Shown here in pieces: positions 505 through 64,000 of a stretch of 64,000 nt of DNA. Source of the stretch: Octopus vulgaris (taxonomy: Eukaryota); contig OX597821.1 of NCBI GenBank assembly GCA_951406725.2, forward strand, positions 9,548,001 through 9,612,000, given 5' to 3'. A program made the translations under genes and the position numbers. How positions within the stretch are numbered: the stretch's first letter is position 1; each line of letters begins with the position of its first letter. The notes beneath the pieces are model-generated. The model was not told the DNA's origin. It worked only from the letters and a program-made list of their open reading frames with translations, and did no database searches.

Positions 505-1405
505 TCTTTATTTCTTTATTGCCCACAGAGAGCTAACCATAGAGGGAGAAATAATGACAGGCAAAGGGATTAAGTCGATTACATCGACGGCAGTGCGTAA
601 TTGATACTTTTTTACGCGACCTCGAAAGGAAGACAGTAAAGTCGACCTCGGCGAAATGTGAACCCGGAACGTAACGACAGACGAAATACAACTAAGCATT
701 TCGCCCGACGTGCTAACGATTCTGCTAACTCACCGCCTGTTAACGAATAAATATTATTTTCTACTCTAGGCAGAAAGCCCAACATTTTTGGGGAGGGGCG
801 CAGTCGATTACATCGACCCAAGTGTGTAATTGTTTACATTGACCCCAGTGGTATTTATTCACATCGATCCCAGTGGTATTTATTTAATCGACCCCCTAAA
901 TGGTGAAAGGTAAAGCAGACCCCGGTGGGAATTTAGCGCAATGACAGACGAAATACCTCTAAGCATTTCGCCTGGCGTGTTAATGTTTCTTATTCTTTTA
1001 TTGCCCACAAGGGGCTAAACATAGAGAGGACAAACAAGGGAAGATAAAGGGATTATGTCGGTTACATCGACCACAGTGCGAAACTGGTACTTAATTTATC
1101 GACCCCGTAAGAAGGACAGGTGATGTCGACCTCGACGGAAATTGGATTTTGAGCGTAAGATAGACGAAATACCTATATCTTTACTACCCACAAGGAGCTA
1201 AACACAGAGAGGACAAACAAGGACAGACAAACGGATTAAGTTGATTATATCGACCCCAGTGCGTAACTGGTACTTAATTCATCGACCCCGAATGGATGAA
1301 AGGAAAGTCGACCGCGGTGGAATTTGAACTCAGAACGTAGCGGCAGACGAAATACTTCTAAGCATTTCGCCCGGCGTGCTAATGTTTTTGCCAGCTCGCC
1401 GCCCA
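505..1405 (-). mobile_element. Cluster of about 4 tandem or partial copies of SINE family B
   Basis: Repeated blocks reverse-complementary to 7265-7500 (GTCGACCTCGGCG, ACATCGACCCCAGTGCG, TTATTGCCCACAAGGGGCTAAAC); the most complete copy is ~1178-1405. Confidence 0.8.
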
Positions 1406-30759: not shown

Positions 30760-32549
30760 GATATGTTTCGACCAAAGATTGGTCCAGGCCATGTCTAACT
30801 TAATAGCACCACCTGATAGGATTATTCGAATCCTGTTTAAGTCAAGTTTTGTTTATGGTCCAATCAAGTAGTGAGTTCTTGTTGGGTGAGTTGTATCCAA
30901 TTATGGGTGGCTTATCTGATATTCTTTGAAGGAATCTATCCAGACTCCGTTTAAAGTTGATGGGATCCTTTCCCTCTTTGATCTGCCTCGGGACAATGTT
31001 AAATAGGGCTGGACCTGTTGAGGAAAATAAATTATGTTGCAGTGTACATGTATGCTGTGATCTTGAATTGGGCAGGGTACGTATGGCCCGTGGTCCCAGT
31101 CTTGGATGAACCTTGAAGCTAATGTTAAGGTCGTTTGGGCAAAGTTAGCGGTATATTCTCCACATCGTACAAATGATGTACCGCTCAAGGCCATGCTGGA
31201 GAGAGTAAAGTTTCAAGGTTTTAAAGCGATCCCAATAATCGAGAGCAGCCATGCCTTCAATTCGTTTAGTGAGTGCCCTCTGGGGTGACTCAATCCTGGA
31301 GACGCTTTGTCTTGTATGGGGAGACCACAGTGGGCAGCAATATTCAAGGTCTGGCCGTACAAAGGAGGAGAAAAGTGGTATGATGACACCTTGTTCTCTG
31401 GACCGGAAAGTTCTTAAGATCCAGGAACTCATCCTACGAGCTATATCGACCTTCTTGTTGATGTGTGCACTCCAACTGAGATCGTCATCAACAATTACAC
31501 CCAGGTCTCTGATATTGTTAGAGGCTGTGAGCGGTTCCCCTGAAGGAAGAGAGTATGGCTGTTTTAGTGAGGAATTTCTTCCAAAATGCATCAGCTCAAA
31601 TTTTCCCTCATTCAGTTGCATTTTGTTTCTGTCTGCCCAATGACTCACAGCATATAGATCAGACTGGAGTTGAGTTCCGACTGCTTCTTCATTGACGATT
31701 TGCTGGAGCTTAGTGTCATCAGCAAATATTTTCACTTTGCAGTAATGTACGACACTGGAAAGGTCGTTTATGTAAATTATGAAGAGTAGCGGACCCAAGA
31801 CAGTTCCCTGGGGAACACCGCTGGTGACTTTTGCTGGGCTTGAGTGGACTCCATCAACTACAACATGTTGTGTTCTATTCGCCAGGAAATACTTAATCCA
31901 GTGTAGAACTTTTCCACGGATTCCAACTTTTGCCAATTTTGAGAGTAGGATATTATGGTCTACCCTGTCGAACGCTTTACTGAAGTCAAGATATATGACG
32001 TCAGAGTTCGAACCTGTTCCCAAGGCTTTGAGTACATCTTCAATGTGGTGTAAGAGCTGTGTTAGACAGTCCCTGCCACAGCGAAAGCCATGCTGATTTG
32101 CATTTAGGAGTTTGTGGGTCTCCAGGATGTCAGCTATCCTTGATCTTAACACTGTTTCAAACACTTTAATGATGTGGGAGGTGAGTGATATTGGGCGATA
32201 GTTGACTGCGAGGGATCTGTTTCCCTGTTTGAAAACCGGGATGACCGACTGGGATAGAAACTGCTTCGGTATATAACCTGCGTCTAACGAATTTCTCCAG
32301 AGGGACTGCAAGTTGGTGTCTACATTCCTTCAGGAGACTAGCTGGGAATCTATCAGGGCCTACAGCAGAGTAGTATTTGACCTCATTTATTGCTGTTACG
32401 ATGTCAGTGGCAGTGAAGGTTATGTCTGAGATTTTGTGTTGGGAGTCAACTTCGTTCGCTTCTCTTACATCAATATCAGTGGGAACACTAAAGACAGAGC
32501 AGTATTGTCTCTGCAGTATTTCTGCCATTTCTTTAGCATCGTAAAACAC
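30760..32549 (-). mobile_element. 5'-truncated CR1-group LINE, ORF2 RT domain with frameshifts
   Basis: ORF 31145-32311: NYRPISLTSHIIKVFE, NQHGFR, YLDFSKAFDRV, SGVPQGTVLGPLLF, FADD, RDLGV, VRPDLEYC; upstream frame 32166-32549 has SAVGPDRFP. Confidence 0.95.
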
Positions 32550-34424
32550 TACTCTGCGTGCAATGTAGCCTCAGTAAAATGTGAGACCAATTGTCAAAAA
32601 TTAGGTAACCCCTCATGTCAGTAATTCGAAGGTGTTAATAAAATATTAAAAATCAGAAAAATGTCATTGTCTGGTAATAGAAGAATACGAATATATATAT
32701 ATATATTTTTACTTTAGTTTGGCATATACGTGGGAATGTGGTACCTAATTATACTTCGCACACTAATTTGTATAACCTACATCTGATTCGTGTTATATTA
32801 TTTTATACGTCTGTTACTTGTAGCATATATTATTATGTATCAAAATGAAAAATTTCTCTTCGACCGTCAGGGTTATATAAGACATCGATATCGTAATTCG
32901 AAATCCAGTTTTACGTCCTGTATGGCTATTCTTTTCATCAATACGTGAACAAAAATACAGTACATCTGAAGGATAAAGTTAAGATATTGTCGTGTAATTT
33001 CTTTTTACTATATTTTTTGTTTCAGACTTTGTAAGACAAACTGCTTCCTTACTAGTAATTTTTTGGCGAAGCAAATTTAAAATACATTCATAAAATATAT
33101 TTCAAGTGATTGCATAGGAGAAAATATCTGATTTATGCACATAAATAGAACGTTCGTATATATGTATATCTATATGTATATAGGCATGTGTGTGTTTATG
33201 CGTAGATGTTGAGATAAATTTCATAGAGAAATCAACATTTCCAATACGTCTAATAATTAGATATATTGCATGCCCCACTCTTAATCAAGATTACGTTTCA
33301 TTGACTATCTAATATTTACTAAATTGTTGAGACTGCTTCTCATAACAGATCAAACGCTCAAAACACATTTTTCAATGCTGTCTGTTAATAATGACTCAGA
33401 TTATGACTTCGCTTGAGTAAATGATAGGAATATTAAATAGTTCACTTAATCAAGTATAATTTTTCCATCTCCCGCAAATGTAGAAAAAGAAAGCAGGAAA
33501 ATATATGACTTCTAGTAAAACAATTGAGCTCACAGCAAACAGCTTTCTAATAAATTTAGTCTTGAAAATCGTTGTCAATTACGTTTCAGGTTTCTTAAAA
33601 ATTCTATACAAATGATGTCAGTTGTAGATTCGAGCGACTACATTTAATTAAAATCTAAAATATATTTCGAATGTTGTTGTACAGGGTACTCAGTGTGTAG
33701 TCCAGATGGTTTTAACATGAATCAATTTAGTCTTTAAGATGTATATTTAACAACGCACGTATGCTTTCATTTGATTATTCAGTAACTACCTACAAGAATA
33801 ACGTAACTGTCACAGTATTAGAAAGTTATTAACATTCAGTCATTCTTAGTAAAATTGTGCAGACAGGATTTGCGAAAATCGTGTTGGATTTAATGTACCA
33901 GTTTCAAGTAATCAAGATAAAGTTTTAATCAGACAGTTGCAAGTGAACACTGTTTGCCTCTCAGGCTTGCACACTTTTCGCAAGTTTATGCATGATGGAT
34001 GCAATTATTAAGGTCATGCATGTACAATATACTCCACAGCCACATATTTAATGTATATAACTTGATGTAAAATTAATATTTGTATAGTTATGTAATTGCA
34101 TCTATGATTGTGACCTACGCAGTAGTGCTGAAAGATTCCTAGCTTTTAAGGTGTCACGAAAGGCCTAGTCTGTGGCCCAACCTTTCGAGGTCTTTTAGAA
34201 AAACTGCAATAAGTAAGTGAACCAGGAGAGGAATATGTTGAAAAAAATCATAATTAACTGACCCTCCTGTATTTTCTTTTGGCCCAAACCAGGAGCAATT
34301 TTGAGTAGCCTCTCTTATGTGTGTCTATGCGTGTGTGTGTGTACATGTGTTAGTGCATGCATGTGTGTGTGCAACGGTGTGAGCGTACGCGCGTTGGTGT
34401 GTGTTTGTACGTGTGAGTGTACGT

Positions 34425-39330: not shown

Positions 39331-39556
39331 TACCCCAAGTAAATAACGTCACCTGGTACTTTTTCATAGTATAAGAGATGAAAATTTTGTATGCAGATAG
39401 AAAAAAATCTTTGACAATTCTGTATATACTATGGCAAACAAACATGTTTTATTTCAATAATATTTTATGAAGTATTCAGTAATATCGTAATTAACATTCT
39501 TCTTAAATTATTTATTTAAATAGGAATAAGTATAAGCATGTAAATATTGATCTCAC

Positions 39557-39941
39557 CTCCAGCGGTTTCATTGACACCAGGAATATCTTCACGCCACAAT
39601 ACAAGTGTGATTCGGGTATAAGTGAAAGCCATGAGACAGAATGGTAGTAAATACAGCGCAATGAATAAAAACATCTGATATATAAACTGCGATCTTTGTG
39701 ACCAGCTTGGTCTACAGGACACTAACCATTTCACGTGGTTGTATCTTATTGGAAGACTTCGATATGTTCGTGCTGTTACCAGATCAGGTGACGCCACGCA
39801 CGCGGACAACAGCCAGATCGTAAGAATGATGTTACGGGCCCGCGATGCTGTGCTCTTGAACGAAAGTGGATGGCAAATGGCATACCAGCGCTCAATAGAT
39901 ATTGCACTTAGCGTTAATACAGAAACAGCAACTGACACAGT
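39557..39941 (-). CDS. Internal exon (TM3 to ICL3) of an orexin/allatotropin receptor-like rhodopsin-class GPCR
   Basis: TVSVAVSVLTLSAISIERWYAICHPLSFKSTASRARNII..W...YLLPFCLMAFTY..I..LWREDIPG closely resembles orexin receptors; acceptor TTCTTTTATTTTCCAG|ACT (phase 0) and donor GAG|GTGAGA (phase 1); 385 nt. Confidence 0.92.
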
Positions 39942-40552
39942 CTGGAAAATAAAAGAAGAAAAATAGATTAATGTACTTTAATCGTTTCAAAGGTTTCTCA
40001 GTAAAAATTTGTATCGATTTATTGCAGAACGTCAAATATATAAAGAATGTTGTCAAATTGCAGTCAAAATATTCAAGAATTTCAAATATATGAGGACGTT
40101 TGTCAAATTGCAGTCTGAATATTTTGGAATACTTGATAAATATTTCATTGGAATGGAAACTCTAAAGAGAAAATATTTCTCTCAAAGTCAGAAAACATTC
40201 GTGAAATTTGAACGTGTTTCAATAGAATTCATGGTAATATTCTTTCTGTGAAGAATAATCACGCATAGTATTAAACGAATCGAAAAGTGTATGCTAAGTC
40301 CTCTAAAATTAACAAGCATTAAAATAACTATGTGCATGAAAGTTAGATGTTGAAATAAACATCACAGTAGAAATAGAGGATGCCTTTGAGATAAACACAA
40401 ACGGTGAAAATAAATATAGAGAAAACTTTGAACTTTAAATGAACTACACTAAATGAGTATTTCACGAGATCATTTTTACAAATTGGAAGAACTTGAATTT
40501 ACTTGTTTTGGTGCATAAAGAGTCAAAAGTATATTACGTTGGAAAATTGGTA

Positions 40553-52592: not shown

Positions 52593-53822
52593 CATACATA
52601 TACACACATACATATAAAGGTATATACATAAATACGTACATACATAGAAATATACACAATCATACATATACAAAATACATATTGATACATACATATACAT
52701 AGATAAATACATGTACACGCCTTTCATTAATTTCTTCTTACACAGGCGACATATACCAAATTTATACGATCTAACCTGACTAAGTATTTGCCAATTAACT
52801 TTGTACACTTTCATACTCGCCCTTAATTTCCATATAAACTTATTCGAGCTAGTACTGCTAAACCTATCCCTAATTTTAAAATTATACTCATGGTTTGCTA
52901 TTCGTAAAATTCACAAAACAAAATTTGGTGAGTTTGTTAACTTCCCTTGAGTTTTTAATTCCACGTCTAGTTTATTAATTATTCGTAAGTTGGTTCAATA
53001 GTTGCTGAGTTTCATTCCTCGTGAGTTGTGTCAGTCCTCGTCGCCACTGTTATAATCCTTAAAATTTTGGATTGTTATTACGTCCACTTCGGTATACAGC
53101 ATACTTGGTAAAACCAATAAAGTCACGAATATCTCTAACCGTCTACTACGTATTCTGGTACTTCATGTACTTCTCTTTACTTATAGTGACTTAGTTATTC
53201 CATTTGTCCTGTGGGAGGGGTGTACTAATTACCTACAACAATGGCTTTTTTCGTTTCCGTTGAGAGCACGCGATGCTACTAGATCACCTTTCAATATCAA
53301 TTTCTTCATCAGAGGATAATAGATTCTTATTTCATTTTCAAGTATGTGTTATACAAATAAATGAACTGCAGAAAGTTTAGAGTAACAGTGATGCATAATT
53401 TGTTCCGGTGTCGTGACAAAAACTGATTTAACTCTCTTTTATATTATTTCGGCTCATTTATTTAGCATCCTAACTAGACCGGAGATAAGTCAGTTCTTGC
53501 TGATATAATTATAAATCGATTTCTCTATGGAGTGTTTATTTTAAACCACATTTATTTATGTAAATCAATGCCTCGACTTGTAAAAGATAATAGAATTGTA
53601 CTGAAGCTATACCACGTGACGTTATTAAAAGACTCCTTAAATAAGCTTGGATGGGGAAGCAAACGATAAAATTCAATGTTTGGAAGACGAAAATTACTTT
53701 ACCGTTGAAAATTATTTCAAGGAAAAAATGATCTCATGTGTGATCTCTCTCTCTCTCTCCCTCTCTCTCTCTGTCACACACACACAACCATATATATAAA
53801 CACACTCACACGTATATGTATG

Positions 53823-54200
53823 TCTTAATATATATATAAAACTGAGAAAGTGTGTGTGTATGTCTGTGTGTTTCCCTAAAACTTGAGAACTACACAACCA
53901 ATTTCATTCAAATTTTACACATGCCTTACTTAGGGTCCGGGGAGTGTCATCGACAAAACATTTTAACTTTTTGCCTAGGGCGAGCCCACAGCAATATATC
54001 TTCTCCATTACGATTCCCTAAAACTTGAGAACTACACAACCAAATTCATTCAAATTTTACACATGCCTTACTTAGGGTCCATGTAGTTTCATGGGCAAAA
54101 AACATGTTCAACTTCTTGCCTAGAGCCAGCCCATAGCAATATCATATCTTCTCCACTATTTCAATATTACGTGTTAAAAGTGAAACAAAAACATTTCTCT
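53823..54200 (+). mobile_element. Helitron-like 5' end with an internal ~140-bp tandem repeat
   Basis: TCTTAATATATATATAAAA..GTGTGT start resembles 47780; TTCCCTAAAACTTGAGAACTACACAACCA occurs at ~53872 and ~54014. Confidence 0.4.
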
Positions 54201-54683
54201 ATTTTATGTCAGATACTTTCACTTTAACAATAAAAATAATAATAACAATTGAATTATATGTAGTAAGTAATAATTAAAATCAAACTAATGTATAATATAA
54301 TCGTAACATAACAAAAGTAAAAATAGCAATTGGTATAAAATTGCATCAATGACTTGAACTTGAATAAGTGGTTTCACATAAATGGGAATAAATTAAAAAT
54401 AAAATTAGCGTGCAGAAATGGAATAGTCCAGATGGATAATAAAAAAATTAAATTAAAGAAAAGACTATTGTCTATAAAGTATAGAATGTAGAGGAAAAAA
54501 GGTCGCGTTTTTTCGGCTCTGTGTTTTTTGCTCTCTGTGAAATTCGGTAAAAAGAAAAAAGAACAAAAAGTGAATGGTTGTTGGTGTAAAATTTTGAACA
54601 TAGTTAATGAGGTTTCGCGTCTCACTGGTTCTGCGCGTTACACTTTTTCGGTTCGGGAGGCCGTTTCTCGGCCGGAGGCGACT

Positions 54684-56012
54684 ATGAGCCGCCTCCATCA
54701 AGCGGAGGAGATGGAAGGGAGAATTTACTCTGAAATTTCGACGGAAGTATCGACATCTGAGGAGGAGTTGGCGGTGAAAAAGATGGAAGGCACCTACGCA
54801 GGTGTAACGAAGAAGTCAACGGAAAGAGAGATAGACTTGGCTAAGTTGGCGGGCCTCCAGGAATTTGTGAAGGAGGACGAGAACGGTGAAGTTGAGCTGC
54901 TGCATCCAGTAGGGTGCGGAGACTGGTTCCATCGTAGAACCATTAAATATAAAGTATTTATGAATGGAGGTAGAAAGATGGAAGTAATTAACATGGAAGC
55001 AATTGAAGAGGCTCTTAAGCAGACGGGAGAGGAAATTGTGTACATGACGAAAGGATTACAATACGGAACCATAACGGTGCAATTTAAAAGTGAAAAAGCA
55101 GCCAGGAATGTAGCAGCCAAGGTGGTGAGTACAGAAAAGATTTACTTGTTACCCTCGTATCTGAATAGGCGGACAACTAGAATTAGGGTGGAGGGAATAC
55201 CTCCACACCTAGAGGGCGAAGTAATAACGGCTGCGGTTATAAAAGGAAATGAGGATAAGGTGGACATCCTCCACGCCAGTATGAAGTATGAAGGCGTGAG
55301 AGGTGCCACACTGGTTATGAACATTCAAACGGAGACGGATGTTATAGAGAAGATTACGGACAGCATAAAGACTGGAAATATTATTATGAGAGTGTGGGTG
55401 GAGGGTAGGGCGCCCAGGTGCTACAAGTGTGGCCAAAGGGGTCACATAAGAGCCTACTGCCCTCCCCCACCAAAGGAAAAAGAAAAGGAAAGCGTTGAGG
55501 AAGCCTCGGGAGAGGAAGAAAATAAACAGAAACAAACAGAGAAGGAAACGACAGAAGAAGAGGAGATGCAACAAGAGTGGAAAGAAGCGGGAACAAAGAG
55601 AAAAAGAAGGAAAAGGAAAAACTGTGCGAAGCCCCAACCCACCCCGACACCACCCATACCCTTGGAGTCCCATCCTTCCCCTGCAAACAGTAATTCCACC
55701 CACTCCCCGCCTACAAGAAGAATAAAAACAGACACACAGAGCAAAGAAAGTCCCAAGTCCCATTTTTTATTTGTTATACATGGGAGAGACGTACAAAACG
55801 TTAAAAAACTGGTGTTAACCAAGTGGTACGAACACGAAGATTGGAGCTACACGGCTGTGGATGGTGATGATACGGGTATATTGGCGACAAGGTTAGAGGA
55901 AGAGGGTGTGTGTTGGAAGTCAGTGGAAATGAAAGATGAATGGATAGAGAGGGCTAAAAGAAAAACGAATGTTGTGATGGTTAAAAGAGGAATACTAATT
56001 GAAAATGGGTGA
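54684..56012 (+). CDS. L1/Tx1 ORF1 (Gag-like) CCHC zinc-knuckle protein, copy 1 (442 aa)
   Basis: RRM-like blocks (GTITVQFKSE; TRIRVEGIPPHL), VWVEGRAPR-CYKCGQRGHIRAYC = CX2CX4HX4C, acidic tract, basic KRKRRK, Pro-rich linker. Confidence 0.85.
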   Translation: MSRLHQAEEMEGRIYSEISTEVSTSEEELAVKKMEGTYAGVTKKSTEREIDLAKLAGLQEFVKEDENGEVELLHPVGCGDWFHRRTIKYKVFMNGGRKMEVINMEAIEEALKQTGEEIVYMTKGLQYGTITVQFKSEKAARNVAAKVVSTEKIYLLPSYLNRRTTRIRVEGIPPHLEGEVITAAVIKGNEDKVDILHASMKYEGVRGATLVMNIQTETDVIEKITDSIKTGNIIMRVWVEGRAPRCYKCGQRGHIRAYCPPPPKEKEKESVEEASGEEENKQKQTEKETTEEEEMQQEWKEAGTKRKRRKRKNCAKPQPTPTPPIPLESHPSPANSNSTHSPPTRRIKTDTQSKESPKSHFLFVIHGRDVQNVKKLVLTKWYEHEDWSYTAVDGDDTGILATRLEEEGVCWKSVEMKDEWIERAKRKTNVVMVKRGILIENG

Positions 56013-56025
56013 AGAAGGACAGATA

Positions 56026-56059
56026 AGTGATGCTGGCGGATGGGGCCGTCGGTATCGCT
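56026..56059 (+). other. 3' UTR RNA hairpin of the array unit (present in all five complete copies)
   Basis: AGTGATGCTGGCGG-ATGGGG-CCGTCGGTATCGCT, a 14-bp stem with 4 G-U pairs. Confidence 0.65.
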
Positions 56060-56164
56060 CTCATATATCATTTTCATATTCCATTTTGCTCATATATATG
56101 TAATTGTGATGTTCCATGTCCCCATGTCTTGTAATGTCCCCCTCTTCGTTGGCCCCTTGTGGGT

Positions 56165-56170
56165 AATAAA
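56165..56170 (+). terminator. AATAAA polyadenylation signal / element 3' end (repeated in each unit)
   Basis: AATAAAAAA lies ~150 nt after the stop codon, at the unit junction. Confidence 0.55.
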
Positions 56171-56357
56171 AAATCACGCGGTTTTTTCGGCTCTGTGTTT
56201 TTTGCTCTCTGTGAAATTCGGTAAAAAGAAAAAAGAACAAAAAGTGAATGGTTGTTGGTGTAAAATTTTGAACATAGTTAATGCGGTTTCGCGTCTCACT
56301 GGTTCTGCGCGTTACACTTTTTCGGTTCGGGAGGCCGTTTCTCGGCCGGAGGCGACT

Positions 56358-57686
56358 ATGAGCCGCCTCCATCAAGCGGAGGAGATGGAAGGGAGAATTT
56401 ACTCTGAAATTTCGACGGAAGTATCGACATCTGAGGAGGAGTTGGCGGTGAAAAAGATGGAAGGCACCTACGCAGGTGTAACGAAGAAGTCAACGGAAAG
56501 AGAGATAGACTTGGCTAAGTTGGCGGGCCTCCAGGAATTTGTGAAGGAGGACGAGAACGGTGAAGTTGAGCTGCTGCATCCAGTAGGGTGCGGAGACTGG
56601 TTCCATCGTAGAACCATTAAATATAAAGTATTTATGAATGGAGGTAGAAAGATGGAAGTAATTAACATGGAAGCAATTGAAGAGGCTCTTAAGCAGACGG
56701 GAGAGGAAATTGTGTACATGACGAAAGGATTACAATACGGAACCATAACGGTGCAATTTAAAAGTGAAAAAGCAGCCAGGAATGTAGCAGCCAAGGTGGT
56801 GAGTACAGAAAAGATTTACTTGTTACCCTCGTATCTGAATAGGCGGACAACTAGAATTAGGGTGGAGGGAATACCTCCACACCTAGAGGGCGAATTAATA
56901 ACGGCTGCGGTTATAAAAGGAAATGAAGATAAAGTGGACATCCTCCACGCCATTATGAAGTATGAAGGCGTGAGAGGTGCCACACTAGTTATGAACGTTC
57001 AAACGGAGGCGGATGTTATAGAGAAGATTACGGACAGCATAAAGACTGGAAATATTATTATGAGAGTGTGGGTGGAGGGTAGGGCGCCCAGGTGCTACAA
57101 GTGTGGCCAAAGGGGTCACATAAGAGCCTACTGCCCTCCCCCACCAAAGGAAAAAGAAAAGGAAAGCGTTGAGGAAGCCTCGGGAGAGGAAGAAAATAAA
57201 CAGAAACAAACAGAGAAGGAAACGACAGAAGAAGAGGAGATGCAACAAGAGTGGAAAGAAGCGGGAACAAAGAGAAAAAGAAGGAAAAAGAAAAACTGTG
57301 CGAAGCCCCAACCCACCCCGACACCACCCATACCCTTGGAGTCCCATCCTTCCCCTGCAAACAGTAATTCCACCCACTCCCCGCCTACAAGAAGAATAAA
57401 AACAGACACACAGAGCAAAGAAAGTCCCAAGACCCATTTTTTATTTGTTATACATGGGAGAGACGTACAAAACGTTAAAAAACTGGTGTTAACCAAGTGG
57501 TACGAACACGAAGATTGGAGCTACACGGCTGTGGATGGTGATGATACGGGTATATTGGCGACAAGGTTAGAGGAAGAGGGTGTGTGTTGGAAGACAGTGG
57601 AAATGAAAGATGAATGGATAGAGAGGGCTAAAAGAAAAACGAATGTTGTGATGGTTAAAACAGGAATACTAATTGAAAATGGGTGA
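56358..57686 (+). CDS. ORF1/Gag-like zinc-knuckle protein, copy 2
   Basis: Intact 442-aa frame near-identical to copy 1. Confidence 0.85.
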   Translation: MSRLHQAEEMEGRIYSEISTEVSTSEEELAVKKMEGTYAGVTKKSTEREIDLAKLAGLQEFVKEDENGEVELLHPVGCGDWFHRRTIKYKVFMNGGRKMEVINMEAIEEALKQTGEEIVYMTKGLQYGTITVQFKSEKAARNVAAKVVSTEKIYLLPSYLNRRTTRIRVEGIPPHLEGELITAAVIKGNEDKVDILHAIMKYEGVRGATLVMNVQTEADVIEKITDSIKTGNIIMRVWVEGRAPRCYKCGQRGHIRAYCPPPPKEKEKESVEEASGEEENKQKQTEKETTEEEEMQQEWKEAGTKRKRRKKKNCAKPQPTPTPPIPLESHPSPANSNSTHSPPTRRIKTDTQSKESPKTHFLFVIHGRDVQNVKKLVLTKWYEHEDWSYTAVDGDDTGILATRLEEEGVCWKTVEMKDEWIERAKRKTNVVMVKTGILIENG

Positions 57687-58029
57687 AGAAGGACAGATAA
57701 GTGATGCTGGCGGATGGGGCCGTCGGTATCGCTCTCATATATCATTTTCATATTCCATTTTGCTCATATATATGTAATTGTGATGTTCCATGTCCCCATG
57801 TCTTGTAATGTCCCCCTCTTCGTTGGCCCCTTGTGGGTAATAAAAAATCACGTGGTTTTCGGCTCCGTGTTTTTTGCTCTCTGTGAAATTCGGTAAAAAG
57901 AAAAAAGAACAAAAAGTGAATGGTTGTTGGTGTAAAATTTTGAACATAGTTAATGCGGTTTCGCGTCTCACTGGTTCTGCGCGTTACACTTTTTCGGTTC
58001 GGGAGGCCGTTTCTCGGCCGGAGGCGACT

Positions 58030-59358
58030 ATGAGCCGCCTCCATCAAGCGGAGGAGATGGAAGGGAGAATTTACTCTGAAATTTCGACGGAAGTATCGAC
58101 ATCTGAGGAGGAGTTGGCGGTGAAAAAGATGGAAGGCACCTACGCAGGTGTAACGAAGAAGTCAACGGAAAGAGAGATAGACTTGGCTAAGTTGGCGGGC
58201 CTCCAGGAATTTGTGAAGGAGGACGAGAACGGTGAAGTTGAGCTGCTGCATCCAGTAGGGTGCGGAGACTGGTTCCATCGTAGAACCATTAAATATAAAG
58301 TATTTATGAATGGAGGTAGAAAGATGGAAGTAATTAACATGGAAGCAATTGAAGAGGCTCTTAAGCAGACGGGAGAGGAAATTGTGTACATGACGAAAGG
58401 ATTACAATACGGAACCATAACGGTGCAATTTAAAAGTGAAAAAGCAGCCAGGAATGTAGCAGCCAAGGTGGTGAGTACAGAAAAGATTTACTTGTTACCC
58501 TCGTATCTGAATAGGCGGACAACTAGAATTAGGGTGGAGGGAATACCTCCACACCTAGAGGGCGAAGTAATAACGGCTGCGGTTATAAAAGGAAATGAGG
58601 ATAAGGTGGACATCCTCCACGCCAGTATGAAGTATGAAGGCGTGAGAGGTGCCACACTGGTTATGAACATTCAAACGGAGGCGGATGTTATAGAGAAGAT
58701 TACGGACAGCATAAAGACTGGAAATATTATTATGAGAGTGTGGGTGGAGGGTAGGGCGCCCAGGTGCTACAAGTGTGGCCAAAGGGGTCACATAAGAGCC
58801 TACTGCCCTCCCCCACCAAAGGAAAAAGAAAAGGAAAGCGTTGAGGAAGCCTCGGGAGAGGAAGAAAATAAACAGAAACAAACAGAGAAGGAAACGACAG
58901 AAGAAGAGGAGATGCAACAAGAGTGGAAAGAAGCGGGAACAAAGAGAAAAAGAAGGAAAAAGAAAAACTGTGCGAAGCCCCAACCCACCCCGACATCACC
59001 CATACCCTTGGAGTCCCATCCTTCCCCTGCAAACAGTAATTCCACCCACTCCCCGCCTACAAGAAGAATAAAAACAGACACACAGAGCAAAGAAAGTCCC
59101 AAGTCCCATTTTTTATTTGTTATACATGGGAGAGACGTACAAAACGTTAAAAAACTGGTGTTAACCAAGTGGTACGAACACGAAGATTGGAGCTACACGG
59201 CTGTGGATGGTGATGATACGGGTATATTGGCGACAAGGTTAGAGGAAGAGGGTGTGTGTTGGAAGTCAGTGGAAATGAAAGATGAATGGATAGAGAGGGC
59301 TAAAAGAAAAACGAATGTTGTGATGGTTAAAACAGGAATACTAATTGAAAATGGGTGA
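58030..59358 (+). CDS. ORF1/Gag-like zinc-knuckle protein, copy 3
   Basis: Intact 442-aa frame. Confidence 0.85.
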   Translation: MSRLHQAEEMEGRIYSEISTEVSTSEEELAVKKMEGTYAGVTKKSTEREIDLAKLAGLQEFVKEDENGEVELLHPVGCGDWFHRRTIKYKVFMNGGRKMEVINMEAIEEALKQTGEEIVYMTKGLQYGTITVQFKSEKAARNVAAKVVSTEKIYLLPSYLNRRTTRIRVEGIPPHLEGEVITAAVIKGNEDKVDILHASMKYEGVRGATLVMNIQTEADVIEKITDSIKTGNIIMRVWVEGRAPRCYKCGQRGHIRAYCPPPPKEKEKESVEEASGEEENKQKQTEKETTEEEEMQQEWKEAGTKRKRRKKKNCAKPQPTPTSPIPLESHPSPANSNSTHSPPTRRIKTDTQSKESPKSHFLFVIHGRDVQNVKKLVLTKWYEHEDWSYTAVDGDDTGILATRLEEEGVCWKSVEMKDEWIERAKRKTNVVMVKTGILIENG

Positions 59359-59703
59359 AGAAGGACAGATAAGTGATGCTGGCGGATGGGGCCGTCGGTA
59401 TCGCTCTCATATATCATTTTCATATTCCATTTTTGCTCATATAAATGTAATTGTGATGTTCCATGTCCCCATGTCTTGTAATGTCCCCCTCTTCGTTGGC
59501 CCCTTGTGGGTAATAAAAAATCACGTGGTTTTTCGGCTCTGTGTTTTTTGCTCTCTGTGAAATTCGGTAAAAAGAAAAAAGAACAAAAAGTGAATGGTTG
59601 TTGGTGTAAAATTTTGAACATAGTTGATGAGGTTTCGCGTCTCACTGGTTCTGCGCGTTACACTTTTTCGGTTCGGGAGGCCGTTTCTCGGCCGGAGGCG
59701 ACT

Positions 59704-61032
59704 ATGAGCCGCCTCCATCAAGCGGAGGAGATGGAAGGGAGAATTTACTCTGAAATTTCGACGGAAGTATCGACATCTGAGGAGGAGTTGGCGGTGAAAA
59801 AGATGGAAGGCACCTACGCAGGTGTAACGAAGAAGTCAACGGAAAGAGAGATAGACTTGGCTAAGTTGGCGGGCCTCCAGGAATTTGTGAAGGAGGACGA
59901 GAACGGTGAAGTTGAGCTGCTGCATCCAGTAGGGTGCGGAGACTGGTTCCATCGTAGAACCATTAAATATAAAGTATTTATGAATGGAGGTAGAAAGATG
60001 GAAGTAATTAACATGGAAGCAATTGAAGAGGCTCTTAAGCAGACGGGAGAGGAAATTGTGTACATGACGAAAGGATTACAATACGGAACCATAACGGTGC
60101 AATTTAAAAGTGAAAAAGCAGCCAGGAATGTAGCAGCCAAGGTGGTGAGTACAGAAAAGATTTACTTGTTACCCTCGTATCTGAATAGGCGGACAACTAG
60201 AATTAGGGTGGAGGGAATACCTCCACACCTAGAGGGCGAAGTAATAACGGCTGCGGTTATAAAAGGAAATGAGGATAAGGTGGACATCCTCCACGCCAGT
60301 ATGAAGTATGAAGGCGTGAGAGGTGCCACACTGGTTATGAACATTCAAACGGAGGCGGATGTTATAGAGAAGATTACGGACAGCATAAAGACTGGAAATA
60401 TTATTATGAGAGTGTGGGTGGAGGGTAGGGCGCCCAGGTGCTACAAGTGTGGCCAAAGGGGTCACATAAGAGCCTACTGCCCTCCCCCACCAAAGGAAAA
60501 AGAAAAGGAAAGCGTTGAGGAAGCCTCGGGAGAGGAAGAAAATAAACAGAAACAAACAGAGAAGGAAACGACAGAAGAAGAGGAGATGCAACAAGAGTGG
60601 AAAGAAGCGGGAACAAAGAGAAAAAGAAGGAAAAAGAAAAACTGTGCGAAGCCCCAACCCACCCCGACATCACCCATACCCTTGGAGTCCCATCCTTCCC
60701 CTGCAAACAGTAATTCCACCCACTCCCCGCCTACAAGAAGAATAAAAACAGACACACAGAGAAAAGAAAGTCCCAAGTCCCATTTTTTATTTGTTATACA
60801 TGGGAGAGACGTACAAAACGTTAAAAAACTGGTGTTAACCAAGTGGTACGAACACGAAGATTGGAGCTACACGGCTGTGGATGGTGATGATACGGGTATA
60901 TTGGCGACAAGGTTAGAGGAAGAGGGTGTGTGTTGGAAGTCAGTGGAAATGAAAGATGAATGGATAGAGAGGGCTAAAAGAAAAACGAATGTTGTGATGG
61001 TTAAAACAGGAATACTAATTGAAAATGGGTGA
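59704..61032 (+). CDS. ORF1/Gag-like zinc-knuckle protein, copy 4
   Basis: Intact 442-aa frame. Confidence 0.85.
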   Translation: MSRLHQAEEMEGRIYSEISTEVSTSEEELAVKKMEGTYAGVTKKSTEREIDLAKLAGLQEFVKEDENGEVELLHPVGCGDWFHRRTIKYKVFMNGGRKMEVINMEAIEEALKQTGEEIVYMTKGLQYGTITVQFKSEKAARNVAAKVVSTEKIYLLPSYLNRRTTRIRVEGIPPHLEGEVITAAVIKGNEDKVDILHASMKYEGVRGATLVMNIQTEADVIEKITDSIKTGNIIMRVWVEGRAPRCYKCGQRGHIRAYCPPPPKEKEKESVEEASGEEENKQKQTEKETTEEEEMQQEWKEAGTKRKRRKKKNCAKPQPTPTSPIPLESHPSPANSNSTHSPPTRRIKTDTQRKESPKSHFLFVIHGRDVQNVKKLVLTKWYEHEDWSYTAVDGDDTGILATRLEEEGVCWKSVEMKDEWIERAKRKTNVVMVKTGILIENG

Positions 61033-61377
61033 AGAAGGACAGATAAGTGATGCTGGCGGATGGGGCCGTCGGTATCGCTCTCATATATCATTTTCATATT
61101 CCATTTTTGCTCATATAAATGTAATTGTGATGTTCCATGTCCCCATGTCTTGTAATGTCCCCCTCTTCGTTGGCCCCTTGTGGGTAATAAAAAATCACGT
61201 GGTTTTTCGGCTCTGTGTTTTTTGCTCTCTGTGAAATTCGGTAAAAAGAAAAAAGAACAAAAAGTGAATGGTTGTTGGTGTAAAATTTTGAACATAGTTG
61301 ATGAGGTTTCGCGTCTCACTGGTTCTGCGCGTTACACTTTTTCGGTTCGGGAGGCCGTTTCTCGGCCGGAGGCGACT

Positions 61378-62706
61378 ATGAGCCGCCTCCATCAAGCGGA
61401 GGAGATGGAAGGGAGAATTTACTCTGAAATTTCGACGGAAGTATCGACATCTGAGGAGGAGTTGGCGGTGAAAAAGATGGAAGGCACCTACGCAGGTGTA
61501 ACGAAGAAGTCAACGGAAAGAGAGATAGACTTGGCTAAGTTGGCGGGCCTCCAGGAATTTGTGAAGGAGGACGAGAACGGTGAAGTTGAGCTGCTGCATC
61601 CAGTAGGGTGCGGAGACTGGTTCCATCGTAGAACCATTAAATATAAAGTATTTATGAATGGAGGTAGAAAGATGGAAGTAATTAACATGGAAGCAATTGA
61701 AGAGGCTCTTAAGCAGACGGGAGAGGAAATTGTGTACATGACAAAAGGATTACAATACGGAACGATAACGGTGCAATTTAAAAGTGAAAAAGCAGCCAGG
61801 AATGTAGCAGCCAAGGTGGTGAGTACAGAAAAGATTTACTTGTTACCCTCGTATCTGAATAGGCGGACAACTAGAATTAGGGTGGAGGGAATACCTCCAC
61901 ACCTAGAGGGCGAAGTAATAACGGCTGCGGTTATAAAAGGAAATGAGGATAAGGTGGACATCCTCCACGCCAGTATGAAGTATGAAGGCGTGAGAGGTGC
62001 CACACTGGTTATGAACATTCAAACGGAGGCGGATGTTATAGAGAAGATTACGGACAGCATAAAGACTGGAAATATTATTATGAGAGTGTGGGTGGAGGGT
62101 AGGGCGCCCAGGTGCTACAAGTGTGGCCAAAGGGGTCACATAAGAGCCTACTGCCCTCCCCCACCAAAGGAAAAAGAAAAGGAAAGCGTTGAGGAAGCCT
62201 CGGGAGAGGAAGAAAATAAACAGAAACAAACAGAGAAGGAAACGACAGAAGAAGAGGAGATGCAACAAGAGTGGAAAGAAGCGGGAACAAAGAGAAAAAG
62301 AAGGAAAAAGAAAAACTGTGCGAAGCCCCAACCCACCCCGACACCACCCATACCCTTGGAGTCCCATCCTTCCCCTGCAAACAGTAATTCCACCCACTCC
62401 CCGCCTACAAGAAAAATAAAAACAGACACACAGAGCAAAGAAAGTCCCAAGACCCATTTTTTATTTGTTATACATGGGAAAGACATACAAAACGTTAAAA
62501 AACTGGTGTTAACCAAGTGGTACGAACACGAAGATTGGAGCTACACGGTTGTGGATAGTGATGATACGGGTATATTGGCGACAAGGTTAGAGGAAGAGGG
62601 TGTGTGTTGGAAGTCAGTGAAAATGAAAGATGAATGGAGAGAGAGGGCTAAAAGAAAAACGAATGTTGTGATAGGTGAAACAGGAATACAAATTGGAAAT
62701 GGGTGA
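61378..62706 (+). CDS. ORF1/Gag-like zinc-knuckle protein, copy 5 (divergent C-terminus)
   Basis: Intact 442-aa frame; amino-acid changes cluster in the last ~100 aa. Confidence 0.85.
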   Translation: MSRLHQAEEMEGRIYSEISTEVSTSEEELAVKKMEGTYAGVTKKSTEREIDLAKLAGLQEFVKEDENGEVELLHPVGCGDWFHRRTIKYKVFMNGGRKMEVINMEAIEEALKQTGEEIVYMTKGLQYGTITVQFKSEKAARNVAAKVVSTEKIYLLPSYLNRRTTRIRVEGIPPHLEGEVITAAVIKGNEDKVDILHASMKYEGVRGATLVMNIQTEADVIEKITDSIKTGNIIMRVWVEGRAPRCYKCGQRGHIRAYCPPPPKEKEKESVEEASGEEENKQKQTEKETTEEEEMQQEWKEAGTKRKRRKKKNCAKPQPTPTPPIPLESHPSPANSNSTHSPPTRKIKTDTQSKESPKTHFLFVIHGKDIQNVKKLVLTKWYEHEDWSYTVVDSDDTGILATRLEEEGVCWKSVKMKDEWRERAKRKTNVVIGETGIQIGNG

Positions 62707-63051
62707 AGAAGGACAGACAAGTGATGCTGGCGGATGGGGCCGTCGGTATCACTCTCATATATCATTTTTCATATTCCATTTTGCTCATATATATGTAATT
62801 GTGATGTTCCATGTCCCCATGTCTTGTAATGTCCCCCTCTTCGTTGGCCCCTTGTGGGTAATAAAAAATCACGTGGTTTTTTCGGCTCTGTGTTTTTTGC
62901 TCTCTGTGAAATTCGGTAAAAAGAAAAAGAACAAAAAGTGAATGGTTGTTGGTGTAAAATTTTGAACATAGTTGATGAGGTTTCGCGTCTCACTGGTTCT
63001 GCGCGTTACACTTTTTCGGTTCGGGAGGCCGTTTCTCGGCCGGAGGCGACT

Positions 63052-64000
63052 ATGAGCCGCCTCCATCAAGCGGAGGAGATGGAAGGGAGAATTTACTCTG
63101 AAATTTCGACGGAAGTATCGACATCTGAGGAGGAGTTGGCGGTGAAAAAGATGGAAGGCACCTACGCAGGTGTAACGAAGAAGTCAACGGAAAGAGAGAT
63201 AGACTTGGCTAAGTTGGCGGGCCTCCAGGAATTTGTGAAGGAGGACGAGAACGGTGAAGTTGAGCTGCTGCATCCAGTAGGGTGCGGAGACTGGTTCCAT
63301 CGTAGAACCATTAAATATAAAGTATTTATGAATGGAGGTAGAAAGATGGAAGTAATTAACATGGAAGCAATTGAAGAGGCTCTTAAGCAGACGGGAGAGG
63401 AAATTGTGTACATGACGAAAGGATTACAATACGGAACGATAACGGTGCAATTTAAAAGTGAAAAAGCAGCCAGGAATGTAGCAGCCAAGGTGGTGAGTAC
63501 AGAAAAGATTTACTTGTTACCCTCGTATCTGAATAGGCGGACAACTAGAATTAGGGTGGAGGGAATACCTCCACACCTAGAGGGCGAAGTAATAACGGCT
63601 GCGGTTATAAAAGGAAATGAGGATAAGGTGGACATCCTCCACGCCAGTATGAAGTATGAAGGCGTGAGAGGTGCCACACTGGTTATGAACATTCAAACGG
63701 AGGCGGATGTTATAGAGAAGATTACGGACAGCATAAAGACTGGAAATATTATTATGAGAGTGTGGGTGGAGGGTAGGGCGCCCAGGTGCTACAAGTGTGG
63801 CCAAAGGGGTCACATAAGAGCCTACTGCCCTCCCCCACCAAAGGAAAAAGAAAAGGAAAGCGTTGAGGAAGCCTCGGGAGAGGAAGAAAATAAACAGAAA
63901 CAAACAGAGAAGGAAACGACAGAAGAAGAGGAGATGCAACAAGAGTGGAAAGAAGCGGGAACAAAGAGAAAAAGAAGGAAAAAGAAAAACTGTGCGAAGC
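63052..64000 (+). CDS. ORF1/Gag-like zinc-knuckle protein, copy 6 (runs off window)
   Basis: Same ATG context GGCGACTATGAGCC; matches the other copies to the window end. Confidence 0.8.
   Translation, partial: MSRLHQAEEMEGRIYSEISTEVSTSEEELAVKKMEGTYAGVTKKSTEREIDLAKLAGLQEFVKEDENGEVELLHPVGCGDWFHRRTIKYKVFMNGGRKMEVINMEAIEEALKQTGEEIVYMTKGLQYGTITVQFKSEKAARNVAAKVVSTEKIYLLPSYLNRRTTRIRVEGIPPHLEGEVITAAVIKGNEDKVDILHASMKYEGVRGATLVMNIQTEADVIEKITDSIKTGNIIMRVWVEGRAPRCYKCGQRGHIRAYCPPPPKEKEKESVEEASGEEENKQKQTEKETTEEEEMQQEWKEAGTKRKRRKKKNCAK

Follow-up and report, generated by a model that had tools for sequence, protein, structure and literature searches.

Retroelements that encode only the first open reading frame (ORF1) of a long interspersed nuclear element (LINE) are considered here for a head-to-tail array at the end of a 64,000-nt stretch of Octopus vulgaris DNA (the window; G000:C8:9548001-9612000 within a 2.8-Gb assembly). 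The closest described systems each share some of its features. HAL1 is non-autonomous, encodes ORF1p only and has had several origins (PMC5753468). Drosophila telomeric ORF1-only elements of the HeT-A type form multi-family head-to-tail arrays, obtain ORF2 from another family, and beget new ORF1-only lineages (PMC13534243). Xenopus Tx1L is a sequence-specific LINE with an APE-type endonuclease that inserts into an apparent DNA transposon, Tx1D (PMC1950540), and the ORF2-less TRE5-A.2 of Dictyostelium is mobilised in trans and forms tandems at a targeted site, with ORF1 mediating target detection (PMC5391098). A recent repeat annotation of O. vulgaris itself lists 13 recently active L1-Tx1 families, L1-Tx1 being the sole L1-type class among the recently active LINEs of its Table 1; neither ORF1 nor nesting came up in the text searched, and its library sequences may already include the units described below (PMC13282606).

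The units of the octopus array lack reverse transcriptase (RT). The most probable account is that they belong to an ORF1-only retroelement, likely copied by the ORF2 of an L1/Tx1-type LINE, and that repeated insertion at the same site built this and similar trains. The assignment to the class of ORF1-only non-autonomous retroelements is made with high confidence.

Like HAL1, the octopus units are non-autonomous and encode only ORF1. HAL1 is dispersed, with an ORF1 of the mammalian L1 type (coiled coil, RRM and C-terminal domain). The octopus units, unlike it, are site-targeted and arrayed, those of family A (below) have no poly(A), and the closest parent found is 27-40% identical; the mammalian L1-type ORF1 of HAL1 proper is absent, the predicted model having tandem RRM-like domains and a CCHC knuckle. 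Like HeT-A arrays, the octopus trains have a single orientation, run head to tail and mix ORF1-only with complete elements; unlike them, they are interstitial, lying within a DNA transposon and not at chromosome ends, have no known host function, and have a partner ORF2 that is nearest to L1 among solved structures (a Jockey structure was not in the comparison). They could be seen as a non-telomeric, L1/Tx1-type counterpart of HeT-A arrays. As with Tx1L and Tx1D, one site in a repeat of DNA-transposon type is targeted, but here the target is Helitron-like, serves at least seven ORF1-only families or subfamilies, and takes repeated insertions that make up trains as long as 24 units. TRE5-A.2 arose from its partner by deletion and inserts at tRNA genes; the octopus ORF1, in contrast, is distant from that of its partner, and targeting of tRNA genes was rejected because none was found in 10 host loci. 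The ingredients are each known, and the octopus trains combine them, as ORF1-only elements of a HAL1/HeT-A-like kind that target a DNA transposon much as Tx1L does. No published account of this combination was found in the open literature, Repbase and subscription journals lying outside the search.

ORF1-only units and their LINE relatives

The window contains five intact 442-aa ORFs and a sixth stopped by the window edge (Table 1), with ATGs at 54684, 56358, 58030, 59704, 61378 and 63052, spaced 1672-1674 bp apart (period ~1,674 bp). This is as described in the original prediction, made from the sequence of the window alone, and so is the layout of the unit, for which a leader of ~180 nt, a 3' region of ~164 nt (predicted as ~160) and an AATAAA at 56165-56170 were measured. 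Its further statements that indels are confined to non-coding homopolymers and that the array holds no RT or endonuclease also agree with the indel columns listed and with the lack of any such match inside the array; the window units differ pairwise by 0.09-1.55%. Three points needed amendment. The window does hold at least six units, but it is not the end of the array, which in the assembly comprises 15 units and extends 15.7 kb further: nine more follow unit 6, ending at G000:C8:9627691, and in the order overall twelve A units come first, then a broken B, one more A and finally an A/B chimera. Family A units lack a poly(A) tail (their last letters are ...AATAAAAAATCA), and what the array sits in is a Helitron-like repeat present in many copies. 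As the units fall into distinct types and families, an assembly artefact was ruled out as the source of the array, the number of identical units being assembly-based.

The predicted fold of ORF1 comprises two RRM-like domains, one at aa ~78-162 and a second, RRM/ferredoxin-like one at aa ~161-241, with a CCHC knuckle at aa 246-259 and an acidic/basic C-terminal half modelled at low confidence. Pfam gave a weak zinc knuckle alone (E 0.0012). The AlphaFold model, from an 11-row alignment, is confident over about aa 45-265. Foldseek matched it to tandem-RRM proteins (best E 6.5e-6, TM scores low) and VIA-align matched aa ~78-162 to single RRMs (Z 8-9.6, root-mean-square deviation 2-3 A); matches for the second domain were weaker, with ACT-like folds among them. 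A word-based protein search with the 442-aa protein gave 0 matches. A profile search found relatives, and five of the ten proteins looked up were named, from Octopus and Argonauta.

The ORF1 core has homologues in the ORF1 proteins of intact APE-RT LINEs from the same genome (E 9e-38, 33% across 221 aa). Between the families A, A2, A3 and B, its ratio of nonsynonymous to synonymous divergence (dN/dS) is 0.09-0.22, with dS up to 2-3 (saturated for B), and these sequence comparisons establish purifying selection on the core. The C-terminal half is under weaker constraint (mostly 0.3-0.7). Divergence from the LINEs together with selection on the core points to old ORF1-only lineages that need the protein, and not to fresh deletions, unless a closer parent was missed.

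The genome contains the exact A/B motif at least 310 times. When 194 zinc-knuckle frames and 163 units taken from fetched regions were clustered, they fell into the autonomous LINEs L and L2 and the ORF1-only families A, A2, A3, B, B0, C, D and E, which measure 1.65-1.9 kb and consist of an ORF followed by the tail; L3, also autonomous, was found subsequently. All of them end in the tail GCCCCT(T/A)GTGGGTAATAA, and ORF1-only families and LINEs together build same-strand mixed trains. In their cores the ORF1-only families share 27-40% identity with L, L2 and L3, the best autonomous match to family A being 33-35% (the searches score best candidates only), and A and B form a well-supported clade separate from the three LINEs. 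ORF2 is intact in L (1131 aa) and L3 (1128 aa), with Exo_endo_phos, RVT_1 and zf-RVT in both. Among solved structures that of L best matches human L1 ORF2 (E 7e-65, vs 5e-26 for R2; no Jockey structure was compared). L has features of the Tx1 clade, namely an ORF1 with CCHC, an ORF2 with APE endonuclease, RT and C-terminal zinc domain, and sequence-specific insertion; the search for RT comparison returned no named animal Tx1 reference. Its copies are ~99% alike and, judged by that similarity, young. L3 is a candidate for the specific partner of A, B and C, although an exact A/B/C-type 5' end was present in only one of the nine top L3 loci inspected, and two more distant ones start similarly. 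One intact L3 (L199:1772-6506; ORF1 446 aa, ORF2 1128 aa, 72% to L) heads its train at the 5' end, upstream of A, B, D and L.

These results bear out the classification as an ORF1-only non-autonomous retroelement. There is a single ORF, homologous to LINE ORF1 and with the predicted RRM-like fold, and no ORF2; the 3' end is common to autonomous LINEs of the same genome; and the dispersed copies show target duplications (16-18 bp), 5' truncation and A>G clusters. The structural and genome-wide checks suggested with the original prediction came out in its favor, as did its cephalopod origin. The autonomous LINEs L, L2 and L3 share the tail but are related only distantly in ORF1. The autonomous partner, like the fixed target site and the trains of mixed families, lay beyond what the window sequence could reveal to that prediction. 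One practical hazard is that ORFs of this kind are called host genes, as relatives already are, and the arrays satellites.

Some other elements touch on this group. An abundant short interspersed (SINE-like) repeat, found at window 997-1355 and many other places (e.g., L049 near 8078), ends with the tail GCCCCTTGTGGGTA(A/G)TAAAGAAATA, and on that account likely uses the same LINE machinery. Match spacing suggests tandem arrays of complete L2 at G000:C27:32961766-32988929 (six copies, ~5.3 kb apart) and C22:14224726-14241079; their junction does not resemble the Helitron site. A B unit at G000:C1:74680742-74682336 (L039) is broken by a 5'-truncated B on the opposite strand, the sole inverted insertion seen in the trains.

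A-to-G clusters and the target repeat

In the RNA INTERMEDIATE test, 194 of 199 units were compared. Ten have clustered A>G changes on the sense strand, and in none of the 194 do T>C, G>A or C>T changes predominate. Measured against the closest unedited copy of each, the ten together have 502 A>G changes and 104 of other kinds. The fraction edited depends on the preceding base (T 0.48, A 0.38, C 0.17, G 0.05) and is highest with G following (0.34, vs 0.20-0.28 for the others), the neighbor pattern described for ADAR in PMC9989829. With clusters in this context, the edited copies were most likely reverse-transcribed from edited RNA, so that at least some units were most likely copied from RNA. 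No long intramolecular duplex was found within a unit; the longest helix is only 13 bp, so that a unit folded on itself does not account for the double-stranded partner in editing. Editing as a source of heritable subfamily change was considered and is unsupported, ordinary polymorphism having no excess of A>G (A>G at 63/2236 vs T>C at 32/1398 shared sites, p 0.39, with five hyper-edited host-train units omitted). The edited units, with up to 119 sense-strand A>G each, include G000:C10:73266699-73268331 (L018), C2:158830797-158832443 (L016), C8:37450519-37452160 (L017), C8:64982867 (L125) and six more. Such copies would mean that ADAR-edited retroelement RNA can enter octopus germline DNA, and they risk being taken for DNA divergence or corrupting editing calls.

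Both flanks of the window's array are multi-copy in the genome. Helitrons begin with 5' TC, end with a hairpin followed by CTAG, and insert between A and T. Empty copies of the host repeat (1.0-1.25 kb) start with TC-TTTATATATATAAAACTGAG and finish with a hairpin and CTAG ahead of T (19 rows, of which one has GGTAG and three did not have the 5' end reached by the script). With these ends, the target repeat can be classed, from sequence features, as non-autonomous and Helitron-like. The empty site, GAAAAAAG(AAG)ATTTGAAC-ACATGGAGGAAAGC, occurs exactly 315 times in the genome. The GATTTGAAC at its insertion point (e.g., L082 near 1490) corresponds on the opposite strand to a B-box-like GTTCAAATC, with no tRNA gene nearby.

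Among 30 left-flank loci fetched, 16 have an A/B/C-type start (one of them L3), four have D, nine are empty and one lacks the site. The first 100 A/B motif matches listed fall into 30 loci; the host site flanks 21 of these, and at most seven are single units. For L, 30 copies were fetched, and all 26 with a recognizable 5' end start at the site sequence, six following the host left arm and 20 another unit's tail. Arrays outside the host have 16-18-bp target duplications at every junction (C10:73.27, C2:158.83). The arrays lie interstitially on many contigs, that of the window being 9.6 Mb into a 119-Mb contig. A pattern-based genome count of filled sites gave four matches, below the number already observed, and is uninformative. 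At G000:C19:65451-66863 the host repeat itself is tandemly duplicated (~1.1 kb), with one copy empty and the next holding D-L-L.

Order and growth of the trains

The order of families in 24 host-anchored trains is non-random, in a sample that is not unbiased, many of the trains having been chosen by similarity to A or A2. L is final in nine of the ten trains that hold it, and is followed by an A unit in the tenth. B is wholly upstream of A2 in nine trains and C in five, and the reverse was never seen. The median distance to relatives elsewhere is smaller for families on the 5' side (C 0.14%, A 0.36%) than for families on the 3' side (0.76-1.74%). Pieces of the host left arm are stranded at 20 internal junctions (19 distinct) across 43 host-flank regions, and at C3:20.07, C3:177.6 and C10:43.6 the piece has the locus's own variant. 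A 12-mer resembling the right arm occurs at 27 junctions, every one before D, E or L and none before ~149 A/B/C starts; these rows were read by eye, as the classifier had mislabelled 17. Three of the ten edited units have their closest unedited copy immediately downstream in the train; none has it immediately upstream. Together, family order, stranded pieces, 12-mers and edited-unit neighbors favor growth by addition at the 5' end, which we consider reasonably likely. Ordered trains would then be a record of insertion history at each locus.

The mechanism proposed is as follows. Unit RNA would be bound by its own ORF1 protein and recruit ORF2 in trans via the tail; the shared tail and site are the grounds on which we infer such trans-mobilisation. 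Target-primed reverse transcription would begin at a nick that lies upstream of the first unit, at a distance of 0-70 nt, and the new 5' end would be joined through pairing with the similar 5' end of the resident unit. Local block duplication then likely enlarged the window's array. D, E and L would retain a target-like 5' end, leaving the site in place on their upstream side. In A, B and C the L-type site is mostly lost, which would account for the position of L and D toward the 3' end of the trains. The trains may also offer a natural test of the role of ORF1 in cis, with very different ORF1s, apparently one ORF2 and one site, and different positions in the train.

A wider reading is possible, if short of probable: an old guild of ORF1-only lineages, HeT-A-like without the telomere, for which the Helitron site serves as a time-ordered insertion tape, fixing ADAR-edited RNA in the germline. 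Its components, tentatively held as a set, are lineages diverged to synonymous saturation, each with its own ORF1, sharing one tail and borrowing the ORF2 of a site-specific LINE. As part of the same set, and no more firmly, ORF1 and homology to the resident 5' end might direct re-insertion upstream, often of the unit's own source copy.

Several observations weigh against repeated insertion with growth at the 5' end. Neither measure of a per-unit age gradient reaches significance: rho>0 holds in 13 of 22 trains (p 0.38), and by private changes the count is 14 of 21 (p 0.19). The C2:158.83 array has a CpG-decayed target copy at its 3' side, a better fit to 3' growth or local duplication, and the direction for D and L is unsettled, their 5' 12-mer often being unlike the right flank. 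Certain 5' junction tags are found again in arrays of other chromosomes, a pattern that also suggests read-through transcripts or gene conversion. Nine of the 30 loci from A/B motif matches have no host flank, although in four of these one train end lies outside the stretch fetched. The window's own array contains no hyper-edited units, and no single LINE is named as the source of ORF2.

The same elements could instead have made one or two targeted insertions, with arrays then arising mainly at the DNA level by unequal crossing-over, re-replication or Helitron rolling-circle copying. Units 1-3 of the window's array recur as units 9-11 (2, 0 and 0 substitutions), and 0-2 substitutions separate units 5-8 and 12 from one another, which indicates that block duplication or multi-unit copying also acted; the C5:100.95 array is composed of two alternating types, and the host repeat is Helitron-like. 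This is nevertheless unlikely as the main process, since trains combine families 27-61% identical in protein, in an order that differs by locus, and 5'-truncated units are present within them. Units are often nearer to copies on other chromosomes than to their neighbors (unit 14 has 0 substitutions relative to unit 3 of the C10:47.67 array), and edited units adjoin unedited ones. Growth at the 3' end, in which new units enter between the last tail and the host right arm and internal host-left pieces are RNA-borne 5' transductions, would suit the young L copies placed last, the tags recurring at other loci and the variant pattern at C2:158.83. It is very unlikely given that the host-right duplication precedes no A/B/C unit, that the locus-specific left-arm variants are repeated within the same train, that A2 is found alone in the site or followed by D, E, L or B0 only, and that edited copies lie upstream of their closest unedited neighbor.

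The original prediction also allowed for a young multicopy family of RNA-binding genes; the rival taken up here is a domesticated or young host family (ZCCHC3- or L1TD1-like) that was tandemly amplified. The core is under purifying selection, and a feature match in the ESM Atlas to a ZCCHC3 RNA-binding cluster (0.90, rank 7) is in keeping with this, but such selection is also expected of copies that depend on their own ORF1 for transposition. Frameshifts, truncation or hyper-editing affect many copies, and the units are intronless, dispersed with target duplications, LINE-tailed and interleaved with LINEs. This part of the prediction was abandoned as extremely improbable.

Coordinates and surroundings of the array

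Table 1. Features of the array and its surroundings (window positions unless given as G000:C8).
Feature	Position	Strand	Remarks
Left arm of ~1.0-1.25-kb non-autonomous Helitron-like repeat (target)	53823..54501	+	Basis: empty-copy comparison
Unit 1, family A ORF1-only element	54502..56176	+	
ORF1 of unit 1, 442 aa	54684..56012	+	
3' tail of unit 1, GCCCCTTGTGGGTAATAAA...	56152..56176	+	
Unit 2	56177..57850	+	ORF 56358-57686; 0 substitutions vs unit 10 (outside window)
Unit 3	57851..59523	+	ORF 58030-59358; 0 substitutions vs unit 11
Unit 4	59524..61197	+	ORF 59704-61032
Unit 5	61198..62871	+	ORF 61378-62706; variant common to units 6-8, 12 and the C10:47.67 Mb array
Unit 6	62872..64000	+	Cut by window edge; intact in assembly
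Right arm of target repeat (hairpin + CTAG)	G000:C8:9627697-9628195		Past array
Coding exon (TM3-TM5), orexin/allatotropin-receptor-like G-protein-coupled receptor gene	39552..39947; G000:C8:9587552-9587950	-	
Preceding coding exon of orexin/allatotropin-receptor-like gene	G000:C8:9760452-9760907		

An Rfam scan of 53500-58000 found no ribozymes or other families above chance. On expression, the record lists no RNA holder. Contigs from four sequencing runs, some labelled as two other organisms, span most of the unit; such contigs cannot show transcription. Some (runs X5 and X7, including a run labelled as another organism) link the element tail (window 56176) to the repeat that hosts the array at a second position, which precedes ATTCCAGTC.

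The receptor-like exons on both sides of the array place it antisense in a ~172-kb first coding intron, in agreement with the predicted location in a neuropeptide-receptor intron. The next intron of the receptor gene contains a degraded fragment of an unrelated LINE RT (window 31148-32570, minus strand; RVT_1 E 6e-31).

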